A DNA stretch of 64,000 nt, from NCBI GenBank assembly GCA_045616565.1, contig JAZLHB010000144.1:18216-82215 (forward strand). The letters are read 5' to 3'. Of the stretch, positions 7,281 to 53,300 are shown one piece after another. Source of the DNA: Akkermansia sp. Lineage in GTDB: Bacteria > Verrucomicrobiota > Verrucomicrobiia > Verrucomicrobiales > Akkermansiaceae. Both the position numbers and the translations under genes were made by a program. How positions within the stretch are numbered: the stretch's first letter is position 1; every line of letters starts with the position of its first letter. Under the pieces are notes generated by a model. That model was not told where the DNA came from, ran no database searches, and worked only from the letters and a program-made list of their open reading frames with translations.

Positions 7281-8060
7281 ATGCAGCACAAGGAAAACAG
7301 CGAACAGGCAACATTGCTTGTAGACAATTCCAACTCGCGAACCAAGTTTGCCTTGGCCGTGCGGGCGGGTGGAGAAGAGTTCAAGGTTCGCACCATGGCA
7401 ACGGAGGAGCTTGCTCCTGCCGCGGTTCAGCACCTCTTGCATGATTGGAAGTATGGACACGTTTGCTTGAGCTCCGTAGTGCCGGCAGCGTGCGAGGTGC
7501 TGCTGAACTCCTTTGCCGGGAAACAGGTGTTCAGAGTGAGTACCGCGCTTGCTCCTGCGGTTTTTTCCGAGTACAGGGGAGCAACCACTTTGGGGGAGGA
7601 TCGAATCGCCAATGTGCTGGCTGTCGCAGAAATGGCTTCCCGTCCCGTGGTGGCGGTGGATATGGGTACTGCTGTCACTTTCGATGTGGTGTGCCCCGGC
7701 CCCCAATTTATGGGGGGGATCATAGCCCCGGGCTTGCAGATGATGGCGGATGCCCTGCATGGCGGCACTTCCCTGCTTCCGGCGTTGAAAATGGTCGGCG
7801 TGCCTGTCAGACGCATCGGGGGGAATACGGAAGATGCCATGCAGGCCGGTGTGTGGCTGGCTTTTTGCGGTATGGTAAGGGAAACGTTGCAGTCTCTGGC
7901 GCAGGAGCTGGGTGCGCGCCCGTACGTCGTGGCCACAGGCGGCAATGCAGCAGCTGCCCTTTCCCTTATTCCGGAGCTGGATGCCGTGGACGAGCACCTT
8001 ACGCTGCGCGGCATTGCCAAGGCGGCAGCCCTTTCCCACCAGTTTTTTTCAAAACATTGA
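7281..8060 (+). CDS. coaX: type III pantothenate kinase
   Basis: Inner ATG 7281 (MQHKENSEQATLLVDNSNSRTKFAL). Motifs DRIANVLAV, VDMGTAVTFDVV, GGIIAPG. Confidence 0.8.
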   Translation: MQHKENSEQATLLVDNSNSRTKFALAVRAGGEEFKVRTMATEELAPAAVQHLLHDWKYGHVCLSSVVPAACEVLLNSFAGKQVFRVSTALAPAVFSEYRGATTLGEDRIANVLAVAEMASRPVVAVDMGTAVTFDVVCPGPQFMGGIIAPGLQMMADALHGGTSLLPALKMVGVPVRRIGGNTEDAMQAGVWLAFCGMVRETLQSLAQELGARPYVVATGGNAAAALSLIPELDAVDEHLTLRGIAKAAALSHQFFSKH

Positions 8061-8069
8061 GAATTTTTG

Positions 8070-8098
8070 TTGCATGCCGCGCGCGATGCGCGTACAAT
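8070..8098 (+). promoter_or_regulatory. acpP promoter TTGCAT-N17-TACAAT
   Basis: Read directly. About 28 nt upstream of the acpP ATG. Confidence 0.55.
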
Positions 8099-8126
8099 AA
8101 GGCTACATTAACTGTCACTTCTACAT

Positions 8127-8366
8127 ATGTCAGACAACATTGAATCTCAAGTTAAGGAAATTATCGCCACCCAGCTGAGCGTTGAACCGGAGAAAGTCAC
8201 CTCTGAAGCCAAGTTCATTGAGGATTTGGGGGCGGATTCCCTGGATATCGTTGAACTCGTCATGGCCTTTGAGGACAAGTTCTCCGTTGAAGTGCCGGAT
8301 GAGGACACGGAGAAGCTCAAGTCCGTCAAGGACGTTGTAGACTACATTGAGCAGCACAAGGCTTAA
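8127..8366 (+). CDS. acpP: acyl carrier protein
   Basis: 79 aa, [19 protein letters not shown] with the phosphopantetheine Ser in DSLD. Confidence 0.95.
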
Positions 8367-8404
8367 CCGGCCCGGCAGGTCCCTTTCTCGGGCGGTTCCT
8401 CCTT

Positions 8405-8426
8405 GCGGTGGGACCGCTCTTTTTCT
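8405..8426 (+). terminator. possible terminator after acpP
   Basis: GCGGT-GGG-ACCGC then TCTTTTTCT. Short stem. Confidence 0.4.
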
Positions 8427-8443
8427 GAACAGGCAGAATCACC

Positions 8444-8968
8444 ATGAACGGTATGGATATGTCATACGCCATGAGCAACACCCAGGTGTTGTATGTGCCT
8501 GACCGCCGCATAGACACTTTCGGAGAAACCCGCTTCAACTACCGCTTGGTATCCGAGCCCATGGATGAGGTGGGAGTCACGCGCGTGCGTGCCGGATGGG
8601 TGGAGGCGCGCCGGCCGCGCATTGTGCGCCCGGCAGACATGGCTGCTGCCGAGATGGAGGGTTTTACCCCGGATGCCGCGCGTTTCTTTGATTGGTTGCG
8701 GGAAAACGCCGGCCGTTCCCTGGCGCTTTTCAAGTACGGTTTCATGTTCAGCCGTTCGGAAGTGACCTCGGAAATGGTGCATGAAGACCTGCGCACGGTG
8801 TCCGACCGCGTGGTGCGGGAAGCCTTGGAATCCGGGGACAGCTACCGCGCTGTTATCCGGGGCGTGGATGACGCGTGGGAGGTTTCCCTGTTGCGCTTTA
8901 TGTTGGAAATGATAGAACAATCCCATGAAATCAACACTTTCGATTTTCGCCGCCGCGGTCTTATTTAG
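8444..8968 (+). CDS. conserved-looking cytoplasmic protein, unknown function
   Basis: 174-aa ORF with protein-like composition. No motif recognised. Confidence 0.5.
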   Translation: MNGMDMSYAMSNTQVLYVPDRRIDTFGETRFNYRLVSEPMDEVGVTRVRAGWVEARRPRIVRPADMAAAEMEGFTPDAARFFDWLRENAGRSLALFKYGFMFSRSEVTSEMVHEDLRTVSDRVVREALESGDSYRAVIRGVDDAWEVSLLRFMLEMIEQSHEINTFDFRRRGLI

Positions 8969-19890: not shown

Positions 19891-21174
19891 ATGCCGATAT
19901 CGGAAGAATTGTTTGAGCGAGCAGGGCGGGTGATACCCGGTGGCGTGAATTCACCCGTTCGCGCGTTCCGCCGCTTGGGGCGCGCACCGTTTTTTGTGAC
20001 ACGCGCGCAGGGGGCCCACCTGTGGGATGAGGACGGGCGGGAGTACATCGACTACGTGGGCACCTGGGGCCCCGCCATTCTGGGGCATGCCCCGGCATGT
20101 GTGCTGGAGGCTGTGCAGCGCATGGTGCCCAACGGGCTTGGCTACGGCATCCCCACGCGCGTGGAGGTGGAAATGGCGGAGCACCTTTGCCGCCGCGTGC
20201 CCGGCATGCAGATGGTGCGCATGACCAACAGCGGAACAGAGGCCACCATGAGCGCCGTGCGCTTGGCGCGCGGCTTCACCGGGCGCCCCTATATCATCAA
20301 GTTTGCGGGCTGCTACCACGGCCATGCAGACAGCCTGCTGGTGTCCGCCGGCAGCGGCGCGCTCACAGGCGGGCAGCCGGACAGCGCGGGCGTTCCGCCG
20401 GAGTTTGCCGCGCTCACCCTGGTGCTGCCGTACAACAAACCTGCCGCCGTGGAGGAGGCCTTCAAGCGGTACGCAGGCAAGATAGCCGGTGTGATTGTGG
20501 AGCCGTATCCCGGCAATGCCGGCTTCTATCTGCCCAAGCCCGGGTATCTGGAATTCCTGCGCGACATCACCGCGCGCGAGGGAGCCCTCTTGATTTTCGA
20601 CGAGGTGATGACGGGCTTCCGCATCTCCACCGCCGGTGTGGCGGGCAAGACGGGAATCACCGCAGACATCACCACCCTCGGCAAGGTCATTGGCGGCGGG
20701 CTGCCCGTGGGCGCCTTCGGCGGGCGCCGCGACATCATGGAATGCGTGGCCCCGCTCGGCCCCGTCTACCAGGCCGGCACGCTCAGCGGCAACCCCGTGG
20801 CCATGGCGGCCGGGCTTGCCCAGCTCACCTACCTGCAGGAGCATGACTGCTACGCGCGGCTGGAAGCGCTCGGCGCGCGCCTGGAGGAGGGCGTGCGCGC
20901 CGCCTTGCATGATCTGCACCTGCCGCTCACCTTCAAGCGCAGCGGCTCCATGTACTGCCTTTTCTTCACCACGCAGGACGTGGTGGACTTGGAGACCGCC
21001 TCCAGCGGCAGCTTCGACATGTTCAAGCGCTACTTCCTCTCCATGCTGGAGCAGGGGGTGTATGTGGCACCCTCGCCCTACGAAACCGGTTTCATCTCCA
21101 CCGCCCACACGGAGGACGACATCGACCGCACCACCGCCGCCATGCGCCGCGCCCTGGCTACTCTTGCCAAATAG
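19891..21174 (+). CDS. hemL: glutamate-1-semialdehyde 2,1-aminomutase
   Basis: RAGRVIPGGVNSPVRAF, GTWGPAILGH, class-III aminotransferase pattern with FDEVMTGFR and the PLP-Lys region TLGKVIGGG. Confidence 0.95.
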   Translation: MPISEELFERAGRVIPGGVNSPVRAFRRLGRAPFFVTRAQGAHLWDEDGREYIDYVGTWGPAILGHAPACVLEAVQRMVPNGLGYGIPTRVEVEMAEHLCRRVPGMQMVRMTNSGTEATMSAVRLARGFTGRPYIIKFAGCYHGHADSLLVSAGSGALTGGQPDSAGVPPEFAALTLVLPYNKPAAVEEAFKRYAGKIAGVIVEPYPGNAGFYLPKPGYLEFLRDITAREGALLIFDEVMTGFRISTAGVAGKTGITADITTLGKVIGGGLPVGAFGGRRDIMECVAPLGPVYQAGTLSGNPVAMAAGLAQLTYLQEHDCYARLEALGARLEEGVRAALHDLHLPLTFKRSGSMYCLFFTTQDVVDLETASSGSFDMFKRYFLSMLEQGVYVAPSPYETGFISTAHTEDDIDRTTAAMRRALATLAK

Positions 21175-21183
21175 AAGCGTCTT

Positions 21184-21779
21184 CACATGTGTCCCAATGA
21201 TTTTTTGGAACCTATGAATTCATGTGGTGGGGTGGATGGTACGCGAAGCGAATCTTGGAAGTTTTCGTAATGAGCAACGGGATAGTGGAGCCACCCCGCC
21301 ATTCGGCGGGGTTCCCCGACGGAGACATTTGGACCCACGCACCCACGGGTTGACACCCGTGGCTACTGGCCCCTTCGGGTGCGCTCCACCATTCGGCGGA
21401 GCTTTATTTAGCACGCCTGTCGGCGCGGAGCGATACCTGCTTCATCTGGCATACTGCCAGATGAAGCCCTGTGATTCGCGCGAATCGCGCATATTGAAAA
21501 ACTCCGCCGAAAGGCGGAGTGCGCCGGAGGCACGGTAGCCACGGGTGTCAACCCGTGGGTAACCAACGGCGGCATGTCTCGGCACGGGAACCCCGCCTCG
21601 TCACGCCGAAGCGCAGCGGCGGCGGACGGATGGCGGGGTGGCTCCACTATCCCGTTGCACCTCTCTGGCTGCCTTTACTGATAAAATCTAAAGAGGGTGG
21701 CTTCAATTTCGGGCGCTTTTCCTAACGGTTGCCCATCAGCTCGTTGCGAAATGTGAATCCATTTATTGGGACACATGTG
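21184..21779. mobile_element. 596-bp non-coding nested-palindromic MITE-like element with 15-bp terminal inverted repeats and a 9-bp target-site duplication
   Basis: Termini are CACATGTGTCCCAAT ... ATTGGGACACATGTG. Flanked by identical AAGCGTCTT at 21175-21183 and 21780-21788. Internal long inverted repeats (GCAACGGGATAGTGGAGCCACCCCGCC and its complement; CCACGGGTTGACACCCGTGG and its partner) and a central perfect hairpin CTTCATCTGGCA-TAC-TGCCAGATGAAG. Confidence 0.8.
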
Positions 21780-21807
21780 AAGCGTCTTTTAATAATTTTG
21801 AAAAATA

Positions 21808-21836
21808 TTGACAAGCGGTGACAAGTGTGCATAATG
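21808..21836 (+). promoter_or_regulatory. near-consensus promoter TTGACA-N17-ATAATG (TG-extended; or N16-CATAAT)
   Basis: Read directly. No ORF or start codon at the predicted transcription start. Confidence 0.6.
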
Positions 21837-21842
21837 AAAAGC

Positions 21843-21964
21843 GAAGGCGGGAATAGTAACGCCCCAAGTCCCCCGGTAGCTATATAAGCAGGTATCCAAT
21901 CCTGCACCGGAGGCACGGGTCCCGGCCTTTAACGAAGGCAAGGTGATGTACCTTGCCTTTTCTC
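21843..21964 (+). ncRNA. candidate ~120-nt small RNA of unknown class (promoter plus terminator unit)
   Basis: Between the promoter above and the terminator AAGGCAAGGT-GATGT-ACCTTGCCTT-TTCTC (21935-21964). Internal helices GGCG/CGCC, CCCCCGGU/ACCGGAGG enclosing GCAGG-UAUCCAAU-CCUGC. Confidence 0.4.
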
Positions 21965-22057
21965 ATCCAAGCATATGACCGGCATAACACTCACTCGCTC
22001 CGCTCGCGTTGACAAGCGCGCGAATTTTTAAATTGCAAATCGTCAATCGTAAATCCC

Positions 22058-22498
22058 ATGGATTTCCGCATCATAGCCGCCGCCAAGCCTAGCATCGCGT
22101 ATGCGCGTGATGGCGTGCGCTTCTTTGAGGAGCGCCTGCGGCCGCTGGGCAAGGTGGAGCTGCGCTATGTGAAGGACGGCACGGCGGAGGACGTCTCCGC
22201 GCGTCTGCTGGAGGCCTCGCAGGGCTGCCTGCGCATCGCCATGGATGAGCGGGGCGAGAACTGGACCACCCGCGAATTCGAGAAGCGCGTGCGCACTTGG
22301 CAGCTGCACGCCGTGAAGCATGTGGCCTTCCTCATCGGCGCGGCAGACGGCCACACGCAGGCCCTGCGGGATGCATGCGACCATGTGCTCTCCCTGGGGC
22401 GCCACACCATGCAGCACGAGCTTGCGCTCGTGGTGCTGCTGGAGCAAGTCTACCGCATCCACACCCTGCTGGCGGGCAGCCCGTACCACCGAGACTAA
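22058..22498 (+). CDS. rlmH: 23S rRNA (pseudouridine1915-N3)-methyltransferase
   Basis: 146 aa SPOUT pattern: ...[17 protein letters not shown]...FLIGAADGH...[23 protein letters not shown]. Confidence 0.85.
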
Positions 22499-26418: not shown

Positions 26419-28989
26419 ATGAAAAGGACATACTTGGCGAAATGGGCGTGGGTGTGCGTGGCCGCATGCCTGGGCGGGGCTTTGGCTGCCGAGCAGCAGC
26501 AGGGCGGCTCCTCCAAGAACCGCCAGAAGCTCAGCAAGGAGGAGGACAAGGTGGACAGCAGCTTCCAAAGCAACCGCACCGCCGCCGAGCGCGGCCAGTA
26601 TGTGGAGGCCCCGGATACCGGCAGCGAGGACACCTCCAGCGACACTTACAAGATTTTCCGGGCCGTCGTGAACCATGATGCCGATGCCCTGGCGGACCTG
26701 TTCGAGGATGCGGAGAACGAGACCGCTTCCACCACGCGCGAAGATGCCGGGCAGGCGGAGGAGGCGGGCGCCAAGAAACGCAGCATCAACCCGGACACCT
26801 GTTTCGGCAACCTGACCAAGGAGGCGCAGGACTCGCTCAACCTGGACCAGCGGGAATTCCTGGTGCGCGCGCATTTCGGCAAGCTGGGCAGCCTCACGCC
26901 GCTGGCGCTCGCCGCCTACTACGGTGACGAGAAGATGGTGGACACCCTGCTGGACAAGGGCAAGGCCGCTGCCGGCAAGACCGTGCTGGAAAGGCAGACC
27001 CCGCTCATGCTCGCCGCCTTCGGCCACAACAAAAAGGTGGTGGACCGCCTGCTCAAGGCCGACGACGGGGATGCGGAGGACCGCGTGACGGAGCAGGACG
27101 CCTACGGCATGACCGTGATGCACTATGCCATCATTGCCCGTGACCGCGATATCCTCAACCTCCTGGTGGGCAGCCTGCCGCCCCATTTGGGCGGCGACAA
27201 GGGCGATGCCCCCGTGAACACCGCCAACATGATGGGCTACACCCCGCTGCACTATGCCGCCCAGCTTGGCGACGAGGTCATGTTCAACCAGCTGCTGGAC
27301 AAGGGGGCGGACTACACCATCGAGGCGAAGGACGGGGAGACCGCGCTCATGGCCATGTGCGCATGCGGGCACACCCGTTTGGTCAAGGATTTCCTGCTGC
27401 GCCTGCACCGCGACTACAAGCGCCTGGAGGTCATCAACGCCCAGGACAAGCGCGGCAACACCGCCGTGCTCCACGCCATCCGCAACAACCGGGAGGACGT
27501 GGCCAAGGCGCTCATCCTGGAGGGCGCGGACCTGCGGCTCAAGAACGAGGCGGACCAGACCGCGCTCATGTTTGCCGCCGCCGTGGGCAACACAGAGCTC
27601 ATTCTGGAGTGCGTGAAGGTGGGCATCAACGCCAACGAGGAGGATGACCGCGGCCGCACCGCCCTCATCCTCGCCACCATTGGCGGCCACACCAAGGCCA
27701 TCATCGAGCTCGCCCACGTGAATGCAGACGCCAACCACTACGATGAGAACGGCCTCACCGCCTACCTCTACGCCAAGAGCATGAACAACGCGGCGGTCAT
27801 GTCCACTCTTGCCGGTATAGGTGCGGACCCCGAGGCCGAGCGCGGAGAGATGCAGCCGGAACGCGGCTGGGGCGGCGCCAACCCCGCGCTCATGGACGCC
27901 ATTGACAAGCTCAAGGTGGGCCGCGTGCGCACCCTGCTGCGCTCCAAGAGGGATGCGCAGGCTGCCGATTTTGCGGGCAACACGCCGCTCATGGTGCTGT
28001 GCTCCCCGCTGGACCCGGAAAACCGCAAGGACGTGGAGGACAAGCCGCACAAGATGGCGCAGATCCTGGATATGCTGCTGCAGAAGGGAGCGGACCCCAA
28101 CGCGGTGAACGCCAACGGACAGACCGCGCTCATGCGCGCCGCCGCAGACCTGGCCAAGAACGACCTCTCCAGCGGCATGGTGTATGAAATCATGAAAAAG
28201 GGTGCATACCTGAACGACCGCCACGGTTTCACCCATGCCAATGCCCTCTGCTACTGCGGGTACGAGTCCATGGATGCCAAAGACAAGCAGGAGGAGCGCT
28301 GGGGCTGGCGCCTCCTTGCCGCCGGCGCCCGCGTGCGCGATATCCAGACCACCGGCATTGACGCCCTCTACGCCTCCTGCGATTCCGATTCCCGCAAGAA
28401 GCAGAAGGACGAGGAGGCGCAGAAAAAGCAGAAAGAGGAGGAAAACTCCACCCCCGGCCAGCTCATGAAGGAGGGCCGGGAGCTGGTGGATTCCACCGTC
28501 AACGGCATTACCGACATGTTCCCCTCCGATCTCACCCAGTCTGAAGACGACAAGCAGGAGGACGGGGGAGGCAACGATGCGCCCGCACAGACCGAGCGGA
28601 CCGCGCAGAACGGCAAATCCGCCCAAGAGGCCGGGAAGAACGACAACAAGCAGACCGAGGACCTGCAGGATTACGTGTTCCCCGGCATGTGCCGCATGCT
28701 GGGTGCAGACCCCCGCCAGCACGTGGAGAAGGCGGGTTCCCCCAACTGCACGGATGCCCTGCGCAACCGCATTGCCGTGAATTCCATGCGCTGGTTTGTG
28801 CGCCTCCTTTCCTACCGCCCGCCCAATTCATCCCAAGAAAACATGACCGGGGGGCTCCCCAACAACGGCAACCGTGCCAACAGGGGCGGCAACAGGGGTA
28901 ACCGCGGCGCCAACCGCGCCAACCGCAGCAACGGCGGCGGCAACCGCGGTGCGGGCGGCGGTGCGGGCGGCGGGCGCGGAAGACGCTAG
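26419..28989 (+). CDS. secreted ankyrin-repeat protein with C-terminal RGG/NRG-rich tail
   Basis: Inner ATG 26419 gives the signal peptide MKRTYLAKWAWVCVAACLGGALAA. At least 10 ANK-like units (TPLMLAA..GH..VV..LL..GAD, GYTPLHYAAQLGD, NTAVLHAIRNNREDVAKALILEGAD, RTALILATIGGHTKAI). Tail NRANRGGNRGNRGANRANRSNGGGNRGAGGGAGGGRGRR. Confidence 0.85.
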   Translation: MKRTYLAKWAWVCVAACLGGALAAEQQQGGSSKNRQKLSKEEDKVDSSFQSNRTAAERGQYVEAPDTGSEDTSSDTYKIFRAVVNHDADALADLFEDAENETASTTREDAGQAEEAGAKKRSINPDTCFGNLTKEAQDSLNLDQREFLVRAHFGKLGSLTPLALAAYYGDEKMVDTLLDKGKAAAGKTVLERQTPLMLAAFGHNKKVVDRLLKADDGDAEDRVTEQDAYGMTVMHYAIIARDRDILNLLVGSLPPHLGGDKGDAPVNTANMMGYTPLHYAAQLGDEVMFNQLLDKGADYTIEAKDGETALMAMCACGHTRLVKDFLLRLHRDYKRLEVINAQDKRGNTAVLHAIRNNREDVAKALILEGADLRLKNEADQTALMFAAAVGNTELILECVKVGINANEEDDRGRTALILATIGGHTKAIIELAHVNADANHYDENGLTAYLYAKSMNNAAVMSTLAGIGADPEAERGEMQPERGWGGANPALMDAIDKLKVGRVRTLLRSKRDAQAADFAGNTPLMVLCSPLDPENRKDVEDKPHKMAQILDMLLQKGADPNAVNANGQTALMRAAADLAKNDLSSGMVYEIMKKGAYLNDRHGFTHANALCYCGYESMDAKDKQEERWGWRLLAAGARVRDIQTTGIDALYASCDSDSRKKQKDEEAQKKQKEEENSTPGQLMKEGRELVDSTVNGITDMFPSDLTQSEDDKQEDGGGNDAPAQTERTAQNGKSAQEAGKNDNKQTEDLQDYVFPGMCRMLGADPRQHVEKAGSPNCTDALRNRIAVNSMRWFVRLLSYRPPNSSQENMTGGLPNNGNRANRGGNRGNRGANRANRSNGGGNRGAGGGAGGGRGRR

Positions 28990-43834: not shown

Positions 43835-44335
43835 ATGGACATTACCAATACCCCCCTGCCATACGTGCGCATTCACAGCAGCCTCTACCACGCCCTGCTC
43901 ACCGAAACATCCAACACGGAACGCGGAATCCTCCTGGCCCTTATCTGCTACTGCGCCATGAACCGCAACGGCGGCCGCATTCCAAACTGCCGCAAGTGGT
44001 CTCGCAATATGTGGCAACGCGCCGCCGGTATCGCCAGCAGCGACTGGACAAATAGGGTGCGCGGGCGGGACGCGGTTGGAACGCAGTTGGAGCGTAGTTG
44101 GAACATGGATAGGACGCAGATGGAGCATGCATGTCCCTTTCTTGCATGGGATGGGGATGATTTGCTGGTGCTCGCCTACCCCGCCGATGACGAGCGCAAA
44201 GCCAGCAGCCATGCGCCTTCGCGCAATCCGGCAGCCCCTCGCGCGTACGCGGGGCCGCGCGCGGGCGCGCAAGAAGAGAATAGAAGAGAAATAAAAGAGA
44301 ATAGATTAAAAAACCAATATGCACCCATGTTCTAA
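43835..44335 (+). CDS. phage-like replication/DUF1376-or-DnaD-like protein (tentative)
   Basis: MDITNTPLPYVRIHSSLYHALLTETSNTERGILLALICYCAMNRNGGRIP resembles the N-terminal winged-helix region of prophage replication organisers. Divergent from gene X. Weak call. Confidence 0.35.
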   Translation: MDITNTPLPYVRIHSSLYHALLTETSNTERGILLALICYCAMNRNGGRIPNCRKWSRNMWQRAAGIASSDWTNRVRGRDAVGTQLERSWNMDRTQMEHACPFLAWDGDDLLVLAYPADDERKASSHAPSRNPAAPRAYAGPRAGAQEENRREIKENRLKNQYAPMF

Positions 44336-44825
44336 TTTGACTCTCCAACAACTTGAGGACGCCTTCTATGCTCACGCCGCTGAACTCATCCGCCGCGGAG
44401 AGTGGGCCGACGCCTGGGTGAAGCTCGCCGCCAGGCTCGGGCCCCTTTCCGCAGAGGGGGAGGCCAGATTCCTCAAGGAGCGCGACGAGCGAATCGCCGC
44501 CTTGGCGAGGCCGGAACGCGCGCGTGTGGAATTGCCCAATCTGGATTTGAGAAACCCGGCCTTCAAGCGCGCTTTCGATAGCGTGGACGCCTGGTGCGCC
44601 CCGCCGCTCATCAAGAGAGGCACCCGCAGCGCCCACCTGCTGCTTTTGGCGGGTGGCGTGGGCAACGGCAAAAAGAGCCTGGCATCTTACGCGGCCGCCA
44701 AGCTGAAAAACGGCGGAGTCTGCGCCGCCACCGTGCCGTGGGCAAGTATTACCCGCGCCCATTCCCCACGCGCCGCAGTGCATGAGCTTGCGGGGGAAAG
44801 CGCCGTCCTATCATGGCAGGAATGA
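44319..44825 (+). pseudogene. DnaC/IstB-like helper ATPase, apparently C-terminally truncated
   Basis: Walker A-like LLLAGGVGNGKKSLASYAA at about residue 113, but the ORF stops about 45 aa later, 8 nt before the MITE-like element. The rest of the AAA+ domain is absent. Confidence 0.45.
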
Positions 44826-44833
44826 ACTACGCG

Positions 44834-45133
44834 CACATGTGTCCCAATGATTTTTGGGGACCTATGAATTCATGTGGTGGGGTGGATGGTACGCGAAGCG
44901 AATCTTGGAAGTTTTCGTAATGAGCAACGGGATAGTGGAGCCACCCCGCCTTTCGTCCCCCTCCGCTGCGCTTTGGCGGGACGAGGCGGGGTGGATGACG
45001 TCTCCGGTTGCACATCTCTTGCCGCCTTTACTGATAAAATCTAAAGAGGGGGGCTTCAATTTTGGGCGATTTTCCTAACGATTACCCATCATCTCATTGC
45101 AAAATGTGAATCCATTTATTGGGACACATGTGC
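44834..45133. mobile_element. 300-bp deletion derivative of the MITE-like element
   Basis: Same termini (CACATGTGTCCCAAT ... ATTGGGACACATGTG). The left ~115 bp and right ~110 bp are near-identical to the 21184-21779 copy, but the central palindrome is missing. No flanking direct repeat. Confidence 0.8.
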
Positions 45134-52126: not shown

Positions 52127-53041
52127 ATGATGGCCGACCGCCCGTTCCCCACGCTGATAGAGGAGTTCCTGCTGTATCTGGCGGCGGAACGCGGGCTGAG
52201 CCTCAACTACCGCCTCTCCGTGCGCCGCAGCCTCACCCGCTTTGGCGATTGGTGCAAGGGGCAGGGGCTGGCGGCGGGGGAGCTCACGGAGCCCCTGCTG
52301 GCGGCCTACCACCGCTCCATGCGTGCGGACGGCCTGGCAGCCTCTTCCTGCCGTGTGGCCATGGTGCATTTGCGTATCTTTTTCCGCCACCTGGCCGCCA
52401 CCAAGGTGCTGCCTGAAAACCCGGCTGCCCTGCTGGTGGCCGGCGGCATCCGCCGCAGTATCCCGGAAACCCTCAGCGCGGACCACGTCAACCGCCTGCT
52501 GGAAAGCATCGACCCCACGGATGTACCCTTCGGCGCGCGTGACCGCGCCATGCTGGAGATGCTCTACGGCAGCGGGCTGCGCGTGAGCGAGCTGGTGGCC
52601 CTGCGCGCAGAGCAGATTGACTGGGAGGAGATGTTCCTGCGCATCACCGGCAAGGGCGGCAAAACCCGCTATGTGCCCCTGGGCCGCGTGGCTGCGGACG
52701 CCCTGCGCCGCTACCTGAACGAGGGACGCCCCAAGCTCTGCCGCGCCGGGCACCGCGCCGCCGCCCTCTTCCTCTCCAACCGCGGCTCCCAGCTCACGCG
52801 GGAGCGCATCCGCCAAATCATCAAGGCACGCGCCGCCGCCGCCGGGCTCCCGGAAAACGTGTACCCCCACATCATGCGCCACTCCTTTGCCACCCACCTG
52901 CTGGAAAACGGCGCAGACCTCCGTGTCATCCAGGACATGCTGGGGCACTCCGACCTGGCCACCACGCAAATCTACACCCATGTGGAGCAAAAGCGCCTCG
53001 TCAACCTCCACCGCAACTTCCACCCACGCGGCAAGAAGTAG
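52127..53041 (+). CDS. xerD: site-specific tyrosine recombinase XerD-like
   Basis: ARDRAMLEMLYGSGLRVSELVAL, HIMRHSFATHLLENGADLRVIQDMLGHSDLATTQIYTHV (R..HxxR..Y). Confidence 0.8.
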   Translation: MMADRPFPTLIEEFLLYLAAERGLSLNYRLSVRRSLTRFGDWCKGQGLAAGELTEPLLAAYHRSMRADGLAASSCRVAMVHLRIFFRHLAATKVLPENPAALLVAGGIRRSIPETLSADHVNRLLESIDPTDVPFGARDRAMLEMLYGSGLRVSELVALRAEQIDWEEMFLRITGKGGKTRYVPLGRVAADALRRYLNEGRPKLCRAGHRAAALFLSNRGSQLTRERIRQIIKARAAAAGLPENVYPHIMRHSFATHLLENGADLRVIQDMLGHSDLATTQIYTHVEQKRLVNLHRNFHPRGKK

Positions 53042-53099
53042 GAAGCATCCCGCCGGCCCACAAAAAAATTGCATTGGTGAAACCAATGCAATTTAGGCG

Positions 53100-53172
53100 T
53101 ACGGGGGACAGGACTTGAACCTGCGACCTCCACCATGTCAAGGTGTTGCTCTACCAACTGAGCTACCTCCGC
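53100..53172 (-). tRNA. tRNA-Val (anticodon GAC)
   Basis: Hand-folded. D arm GCTC-AGTTGGTA-GAGC, anticodon loop TTGACAT, T arm GCAGG-TTCAAGT-CCTGT. One A-C mismatch in the acceptor stem. Confidence 0.75.
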
Positions 53173-53178
53173 ATGAAC

Positions 53179-53261
53179 TGGGCAGGGATGGATTCGAACC
53201 ATCGAAAGCAAACGCTAGCAGATTTACAGTCTGCCCCCTTTGACCGCTCGGGAACCTACCC
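53179..53261 (-). tRNA. tRNA-Tyr (anticodon GUA), long variable arm
   Basis: Hand-folded. GGGTAGG pairs with CCTGCCC, anticodon arm GCAGA-CTGTAAA-TCTGC, T arm GATGG-TTCGAAT-CCATC. Confidence 0.85.
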
Positions 53262-53300
53262 ATGCTGAGATTGCAGGCTGCCGAAGCAGCGTGCGGCGGA

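Follow-up and report, generated by a model that had tools for sequence, protein, structure and literature searches.

The closest described systems to the repeat reported here are short non-autonomous transposons with terminal inverted repeats (MITEs), among them Correia/NEMIS of Neisseria, RUP of Streptococcus, ERIC, and Nezha of cyanobacteria. These elements are small, have terminal repeats, and carry no transposase; they are distributed in multiple intergenic copies, duplicate their target, fold into long hairpins, and include size variants that share the same ends. Our family is like them in each of these respects. Correia elements duplicate the dinucleotide TA. In eukaryotes, foldback (FB) transposons have long, internally repetitive inverted arms and are unstable by inversion and deletion. 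On the basis of comparisons among copies in and outside the 64-kb stretch of DNA analyzed here (the window), we conclude that an element of 596 bp inserted beside hemL, hereafter copy A, is very probably a MITE and represents a previously undescribed family.

Boundaries and genomic setting of copy A

Copy A occupies positions 21184 to 21779 of the window and is bounded by perfect 15-bp terminal inverted repeats. The left repeat, CACATGTGTCCCAAT (21184 to 21198, plus strand), matches the reverse complement of the right end exactly, and the right repeat accordingly reads ATTGGGACACATGTG (21765 to 21779, minus strand). The outer 8 bases of the left repeat, CACATGTG, are a palindrome in themselves. 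Immediately outside the element, the 9-bp sequence AAGCGTCTT is present on both sides, at 21175 to 21183, where it adjoins the hemL stop codon, and at 21780 to 21788, where it abuts the right end. This 9-mer occurs only twice in the 64-kb window, both times abutting copy A, and in none of 45 other loci; the probability that nine fixed positions all match by chance is approximately 4 × 10−6. A 10-bp reading of the flanking repeat, GAAGCGTCTT, is also possible, since the G of the hemL TAG stop matches the final G of the right repeat.

The gene upstream, hemL (open reading frame [ORF] at 19891 to 21174), encodes HemL (PF00202; relatives are named glutamate-1-semialdehyde 2,1-aminomutase). Its stop codon, TAG (21172 to 21174), ends at 21174, and the left duplication therefore starts at the next base. 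Downstream of copy A lies rlmH (ORF at 22058 to 22498; PF02590). The sequence-only reading of this DNA had claimed perfect 15-bp inverted termini, a perfect 9-bp duplication, and insertion directly after the hemL stop codon, and all three claims were borne out at these positions.

Removal of copy A together with one repeat gave the reconstructed empty site GCCAAATAGAAGCGTCTTTTAATAATTTTGAAAAATATTGACA, in which the hemL stop codon is followed by an AT-rich spacer and then by a strong promoter-like site at 21808 to 21835 (TTGACA-16-CATAAT, 11/12 matches) that lies between copy A and rlmH in the present sequence. When the spacer at 21789 to 22057 was considered as a relic of another family copy, no significant similarity was detected. 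Within this spacer, at 21808 to 21965, the promoter-like site is followed by approximately 100 nt that fold moderately well (z = −3.3) and terminate in a 12-bp hairpin plus TTTTCT. This segment may correspond to a small RNA or to a leader; it gave no Rfam hit and was not conserved 5′ of rlmH in relatives.

We infer the insertion of copy A rather than observe it, because no empty site was recovered; nor was any record found with identical HemL and RlmH products. The closest relatives of HemL (95% amino acid identity) and RlmH (97%) do not share the hemL-rlmH junction. In the relatives L014, L015, L028, L029, and others, homology stops at the hemL stop codon or at the rlmH start codon; hemL or rlmH in these genomes is 89 to 91% identical at the DNA level, yet gene order is not conserved. 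As judged from these comparisons, the hemL-rlmH junction is a feature of this genome only. In L014, the upstream neighbor of hemL is a homologue of window positions 26771 to 28507 in inverted orientation. Frequent rearrangement in the clade is suggested by such differences, and it was possibly repeat mediated.

Family members in the window and in related genomes

The exact 15-mer CACATGTGTCCCAAT occurs five times in the window, where it delimits two complete elements and one solo end. The second complete element, copy B (44834 to 45132, plus strand), is 299 bp long and has perfect terminal repeats, both arms, and a core that consists of a single 88-bp hairpin (44924 to 45011); it has no flanking duplication. 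Copy A comprises both copy B arms plus approximately 330 bp of extra interior, with 97.5% identity to copy B over bases 1 to 122 of copy A and 88% over bases 449 to 596. A contig from a metagenome-assembled genome (MAG), L012, is orthologous to the left flank of copy B (95.8% identity over 1.8 kb). Because L012 reaches further into the core at this orthologous site, copy B probably arose by deletion. Copy B starts 8 bp past the stop codon of an ORF without a Pfam hit (44319 to 44825), in the same orientation as copy A after hemL. The placement of copies A and B hints at a preference for the 3′ ends of genes, although no judgment can rest on two cases.

The solo end, copy C (53425 to approximately 53497, plus strand), is a truncated left end located between tRNA-Tyr and lgt, and it consists of the terminal repeat and some 60 to 70 bp of diverged left arm. 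Just upstream of it, genes for tRNA-Val and tRNA-Tyr (53099 to 53262) follow a gene for a 304-aa XerC/D-type tyrosine recombinase (52127 to 53041), the only recombinase-like gene that was scanned. This gene probably encodes a housekeeping Xer enzyme unrelated to the family. An nhmmer search with four family members detected no further member in the window. We considered whether the hairpin modules are independent genome-wide repeats and rejected this, since in the window they are confined to family members.

A second, different intergenic repeat of approximately 180 bp was also observed in the window, at 40262 to 40449 and 43146 to 43324, and in L002 (703 to 923). It is bounded by inverted TTGCCAATACTGTA and TACAGTATTGGCAA and lies beside tandemly duplicated gene pairs (40452 to 41751 and 41798 to 43142). 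Either a further small mobile element or the duplication of a regulatory region with paired operator sites could explain it.

To survey the family more broadly, one genome per GTDB species was scanned with the pattern CACATGTGTCCCAATRAWTK, which returned 13 loci. Matches in Eubacteriales, Paenibacillus, and Saccharibacteria extended over 19 to 21 nt only, approximately the chance expectation. Homologous arms and cores were found in this species-representative scan only in the Akkermansia/Verrucomicrobiales MAGs JAZLFB01, JAZUGI01, and CALCWC01, with four family-bearing contigs in each of the first two. A scan of JGI metagenomes added two more contigs, both from co-assembly R28. No family member was detected among IMG/VR viral contigs, PLSDB plasmids, or phage records. 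Copies from different species-representative MAGs are approximately 90 to 92% identical (gaps counted), and their flanks are unrelated. The count of copies that the sequence-only reading had proposed thus yielded three members in the 64-kb window plus copies with unrelated flanks in related MAGs. As far as sampled, the family is confined to a clade of high-GC Akkermansia-like gut bacteria.

Family copies range from 94 to 1009 bp; their flanks are non-homologous, and they are spread over at least five Akkermansia-like MAGs and metagenome contigs. Complete units measure 299 bp (copy B), 517 bp (L002), 593 bp (L013b), 596 bp (copy A), 697 bp (L007 and L024, which are 98% identical over approximately 8 kb), and 1009 bp (L025). 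The termini of copies A and B recur in L007, L024, and L025. Only L007/L024 and L025/L046 are confirmed by two assemblies, and copies in MAGs may be partly misassembled. In many cases the match is no more than a few hundred bases from the end of its contig, as expected because repeats break assemblies.

Several more divergent forms were observed. Two Akkermansia MAGs, JAFWYD01 and JAZOTV01, contain only terminal-repeat pairs of approximately 30 bp. Such pairs, palindromes of the two terminal repeats alone (for example, CACATGTGTCCCAATGATTTGGCACACGTGG), lie in intergenic DNA at L010 (approximately 2133 to 2164) and L011 (164 to 194); they may be deletion derivatives pared down to the extreme or palindromic binding sites for a protein. 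The copy in L008 (2705 to 3355) has an extra insert of approximately 330 bp between two CACCCCGC...GCGGGGTG hairpins, with an 84-aa ORF without a Pfam match, and the contig end falls inside this element. Diverged, weak core-like hairpin segments that lack recognizable terminal repeats were seen in L014 (4398 to 4565) and L028 (1516 to 1679). The segment in L014, the closest relative, lies approximately 110 bp 3′ of hemL, and both available contigs also end there.

Arms, invertible core, and folding

Family members are built of a 15-bp terminal repeat, a left arm of approximately 90 bp, a GC-rich hairpin core, a right arm of approximately 120 bp, and the opposite terminal repeat. The left arm of copy A (21184 to 21273, 90 bp, plus strand, 43% GC) is 97.5% identical to copy B and 98% identical to L002, and the right arm (21659 to 21779, 121 bp, plus strand, 46% GC) shares 88% identity with its counterpart in copy B. 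Between them lies the nested-palindromic core (21274 to 21658, 65% GC), bounded by GCAACGGGATAG... and ...CTATCCCGTTGC; the genome as a whole has 61% GC. The right arm alignment is gap free in 9 of the 10 copies compared. The two arms cannot be aligned convincingly with each other beyond 15 to 17 bp, and an extended terminal repeat was therefore rejected as a description of the ends.

The core of copy A is organized as concentric inverted repeats of 32 nt (97% identity), 26 nt (100%), and 24 nt (83%). The sequence-only reading had described a 27-bp repeat pair in this interior; the pair is present, but its length is really 32 nt at 97% identity (21274 to 21305 and 21627 to 21658). The other internal features it had listed were all located: a perfect central hairpin of 13 bp (arms at 21439 to 21451 and 21455 to 21467), CCACGGG-N6-CCCGTGG hairpins in mirrored positions (21343 to 21362 and 21539 to 21558), and the CTCCGCC-GAAA-GGCGGAG hairpin, CTCCGCCGAAAGGCGGAG (21502 to 21519). 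Core hairpins across the family reuse the stems CACCCCGCC/GGCGGGGTG and CCCACGGG-TTGACA-CCCGTGG.

Consistent with the claim that the whole element could form one long imperfect hairpin, copy A folds in this way whichever strand is taken and under RNA as well as DNA parameters. The predicted RNA fold has a free energy of −348.6 kcal/mol, compared to −225.6 ± 7.0 kcal/mol for shuffled sequences (z = −17.7); the opposite strand reaches −335.0 kcal/mol (z = −17.5), and DNA parameters give z = −14.5. Because copy A begins 9 nt past the hemL stop codon with no terminator between, hemL transcripts probably enter a hairpin of approximately 200 base pairs. This hairpin could act as a pause, termination, or RNase III site, which would be a side effect of the insertion and not a selected function.

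Such stability raises the question of a structured-RNA gene or gene family, with the hairpins as its helices and the terminal repeats as the stem that closes it. Apart from the extreme z score, this explanation draws on the many hairpins capped by GNRA- or UUCG-like loops (GGAA, GAAA, and TTCG) and on stems maintained through two-sided changes (CCCAGGCC-GGAA-GGCCTGGG versus CCCAGTGC-GGGA-GCGCTGGG). However, the two strands fold about equally, and ten copies showed no consistent G-U excess in either orientation. The core and an inner segment of it are inverted among copies and the loops occur in both senses, so that there is no fixed 5′-to-3′ RNA. Searches of the region, of six family loci, and of the whole window against Rfam 15 gave only generic hits below threshold (long hairpins of plant microRNA precursors and Acido-Lenti-1, far below gathering scores), no conserved promoter or terminator was seen, and the core is almost wholly missing from copy B. 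The 9-bp duplications would also be unexpected for an RNA gene. We therefore consider an RNA gene highly improbable.

Coding content was likewise scarce, in agreement with the absence of a credible interior ORF noted from the sequence alone: the interior ORFs of copy A, at most 104 aa long, match no Pfam family and are not common to other copies, and the left-arm ORFs are disrupted elsewhere in the family. A possible coding remnant in the right arm, VAPLWLPLLIKSKEGGFNFGRFS*, appeared to be conserved in eight copies. We counted the minimum number of substitutions at each codon position across copies and obtained 9, 15, and 9 for the first, second, and third positions; there was no third-position bias, and the remnant was rejected. 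Right-arm conservation is at the DNA level and is not coding.

The orientation of the core relative to the arms varies among copies. The core has inverted ends, GCAACSGGA... and ...TCCSGTTGC, and the core end GGATAGYGGAGCC lies next to the left arm in copies A and B, L002, and L013b but next to the right arm in L003, L007, L008, and L024. When L007 was aligned with L013b, the arms matched in the minus orientation, the outer core segments in the plus orientation, and an inner segment of approximately 75 to 110 bp again in the minus orientation. Nested inversions of this kind are, by such comparison, what is expected of a long DNA quasi-palindrome recombining between its own arms. Copy A has the "left-type" core end on both sides, with mirrored segments 97 to 100% identical, and looks like a recently palindromized variant. 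After insertion, internal inverted repeats would thus drive inversions, deletions, and correction towards perfect palindromes.

These two orientations could instead have arisen by independent insertions of a palindromic GCAAC...GTTGC core into an arms-only MITE. Such a composite origin would account for a core with its own inverted ends in both orientations relative to the arms, for its different base composition (65% GC versus 43 to 46% in the arms), and for the core-like hairpins without recognizable terminal repeats 3′ of hemL in L014, the closest relative, and in L028. Yet no copy has a duplication at its core-arm junctions, and core motifs in the window were found inside family members only. 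The inverted repeat moreover continues past GCAAC into both arms, as (A/G)GAGACNT joined to GCAAC, the pattern expected of a single long quasi-palindrome inverting through recombination of its own arms. No arms-only element of natural length was seen, and the short forms look like deletions (L012 versus copy B). A composite origin is therefore unlikely, and we treat arms and core as parts of a single MITE.

Transposition, meaning of the family, and comparison with known systems

A second datable insertion was provided by a 1009-bp unit in L025 (7622 to 8630), which has a right-arm-type start and the end ...TTTGGGACACATGTG. It is flanked by a perfect 9-bp duplication, GGGACTGGC (7613 to 7621 and 8631 to 8639), and the junction is also present in a second sample, L046. 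With the unit and a single repeat taken out, the sequence again forms a perfect hairpin with an 11-bp GC stem, CCCCCCCCGGG-ACTGG-CCCGGGGGGGG, and the duplication is centered on its loop. The target of copy A is also symmetric, being the center of a small palindrome, TAGAAG-CGT-CTTTTA, that overlaps the hemL stop codon. Two independent, perfect duplications of the same length on symmetric targets are the mark of a transposase whose staggered cuts lie 9 bp apart. No duplication flanks three of the five complete units examined for it (copy B, L007/L024, and L013b). Most simply, these copies would be old or would be products of recombination between copies; such recombination fits the lost gene order around hemL and rlmH in relatives that are 9 to 11% diverged there.

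The L025 unit encloses AT-rich DNA with a 237-aa ORF whose product has a hydrophobic N-terminal stretch ending in ...LTSC and no Pfam hit; four homologues only were present among 5.8 billion proteins. These homologues belong to the same locus (L046) or to contigs without terminal repeats. An inner mini-element of 94 bp also lies inside the unit. The passenger DNA may have been either mobilized by the ends or inserted later.

Taken together, the family has terminal repeats, a constant 9-bp duplication in two units, sizes from 94 to 1009 bp, no transposase ORF, and dispersed copies. The MITE-like character proposed from the sequence alone was strengthened by these data, since a second element and a solo end in the window carry the termini of copy A, copies occur elsewhere, and L025 supplies a second 9-bp duplication. 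We propose that a transposase encoded elsewhere in the genome would bind the terminal repeats and arms, that the element would be joined to target DNA cut with a 9-bp stagger, and that gap repair would generate the duplication. The responsible enzyme would most likely be a DDE transposase of a family making 9-bp duplications. The termini of our family begin with CA; CA ends and target duplications near 9 bp also characterize the IS4-like and ISAs1-like families, which would be compatible as possible parents.

No transposase was found within the element or near any copy, and none with these ends was found in the window, as the sequence-only reading had stated. Its further suggestion, to look for an autonomous insertion sequence (IS) with the same termini, was followed by exact-end pattern scans and BLAST. 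No transposase-bearing element with these ends was found in the window, the fetched loci, one genome per GTDB species, JGI metagenomes, IMG/VR, PLSDB, or phage records. The missing partner proves little, because MAGs rarely assemble IS copies. The ORFs that neighbor solo ends in L008, L010, L011, and L025 either lack a Pfam match or are ordinary genes. The sequence-only reading had not recognized the element as a described repeat family; no Rfam family corresponds to it, and the literature searched contained no paper with the terminal sequence or describing MITEs in Akkermansia or Verrucomicrobia.

Movement by another chemistry was also weighed, in which the element would be a REP/REPIN-like or IS200/IS605-derived palindrome that a Y1 HUH transposase (RAYT/TnpA) mobilizes in the form of single-stranded hairpin DNA. 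The family is palindromic at every scale, the terminus-only palindromes of approximately 30 bp at L010 and L011 resemble a REP unit, duplications are missing from most complete copies, and both datable insertions lie in hairpin loops. Two independent perfect 9-bp duplications, however, are not a product of HUH single-strand transposition. The termini lack a GTAG or CGTC tag, the arms are distinct, conserved, AT rich, and approximately 90 and 120 bp long, unlike short REP units, which are palindromes of 20 to 40 bp, and no RAYT or TnpA gene was seen in any locus. Elements derived from IS200/IS605 and carriers of omega RNA have subterminal hairpins, insert 3′ of a short target motif, and have neither terminal repeats nor duplication, and copy A has both. 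This route of movement thus has very little probability in our judgment.

A further reading concerns function rather than movement. The hairpin core might be a selected module, either invertible or cruciform forming at the DNA level or a terminator or RNase target in the transcript, so that the element would be a mobile 3′-end/terminator cassette spread by a transposase that targets hairpin loops at gene ends. This reading is allowed because the core is conserved across species, stems keep paired changes, and both datable targets are hairpins, and also because copies A and B lie 9 and 8 bp past gene or ORF ends and the partner transposase was not found. We hold it to be doubtful and retain the MITE without a selected function for its core.

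These results document a mobile repeat family, apparently not described before, from uncultured Akkermansia-like gut bacteria of high GC content. Its copies interrupt short-read assemblies, and the family may contribute to rearrangements in the clade, in which gene order around copy A differs even between close relatives. Its terminal sequence, CACATGTGTCCCAAT, combined with the 9-bp duplication offers a precise handle for finding the transposase in long-read genomes, and the arms together with CACATGTGTCCCAAW could serve as a handle for finding the family itself. Current knowledge of transposition is unchanged by these elements. Their mildly unusual traits are a nested invertible core between unlike arms, insertion into hairpin centers, and a relative that encloses passenger DNA.

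Compared to known systems, the family is like REP/REPIN sequences in its extragenic palindromes, doublet or hairpin organization, and very short palindromic forms, but it differs in having no GTAG/CGTC tag, a larger size, distinct arms, and 9-bp duplications. The resemblance to FB transposons is an analogy only, as these belong to another domain of life, have no sequence relation to our family, and are much larger. The subgroups of the IS4 family and ISAs1 are alike in the 9-bp duplication and CA ends but differ from our family, which has no transposase gene. IS10 also uses a symmetric 9-bp target, although neither target seen here fits the IS10 consensus, NGCTNAGCN. Mobile insertion cassettes (MICs) resemble the L025 unit (7622 to 8630), which has IS-type ends, a duplication, and a 237-aa passenger ORF but no transposase; they are unlike the window copies, which have no ORF, and the L025 passenger may have entered an element that was already inserted. 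Relative to the MITEs named at the outset, the family is unrelated in sequence, no parent IS was identified for it, and its duplication is 9 bp; it differs from them further in its unusually long, GC-rich nested quasi-palindrome, which inverts relative to two non-homologous arms.
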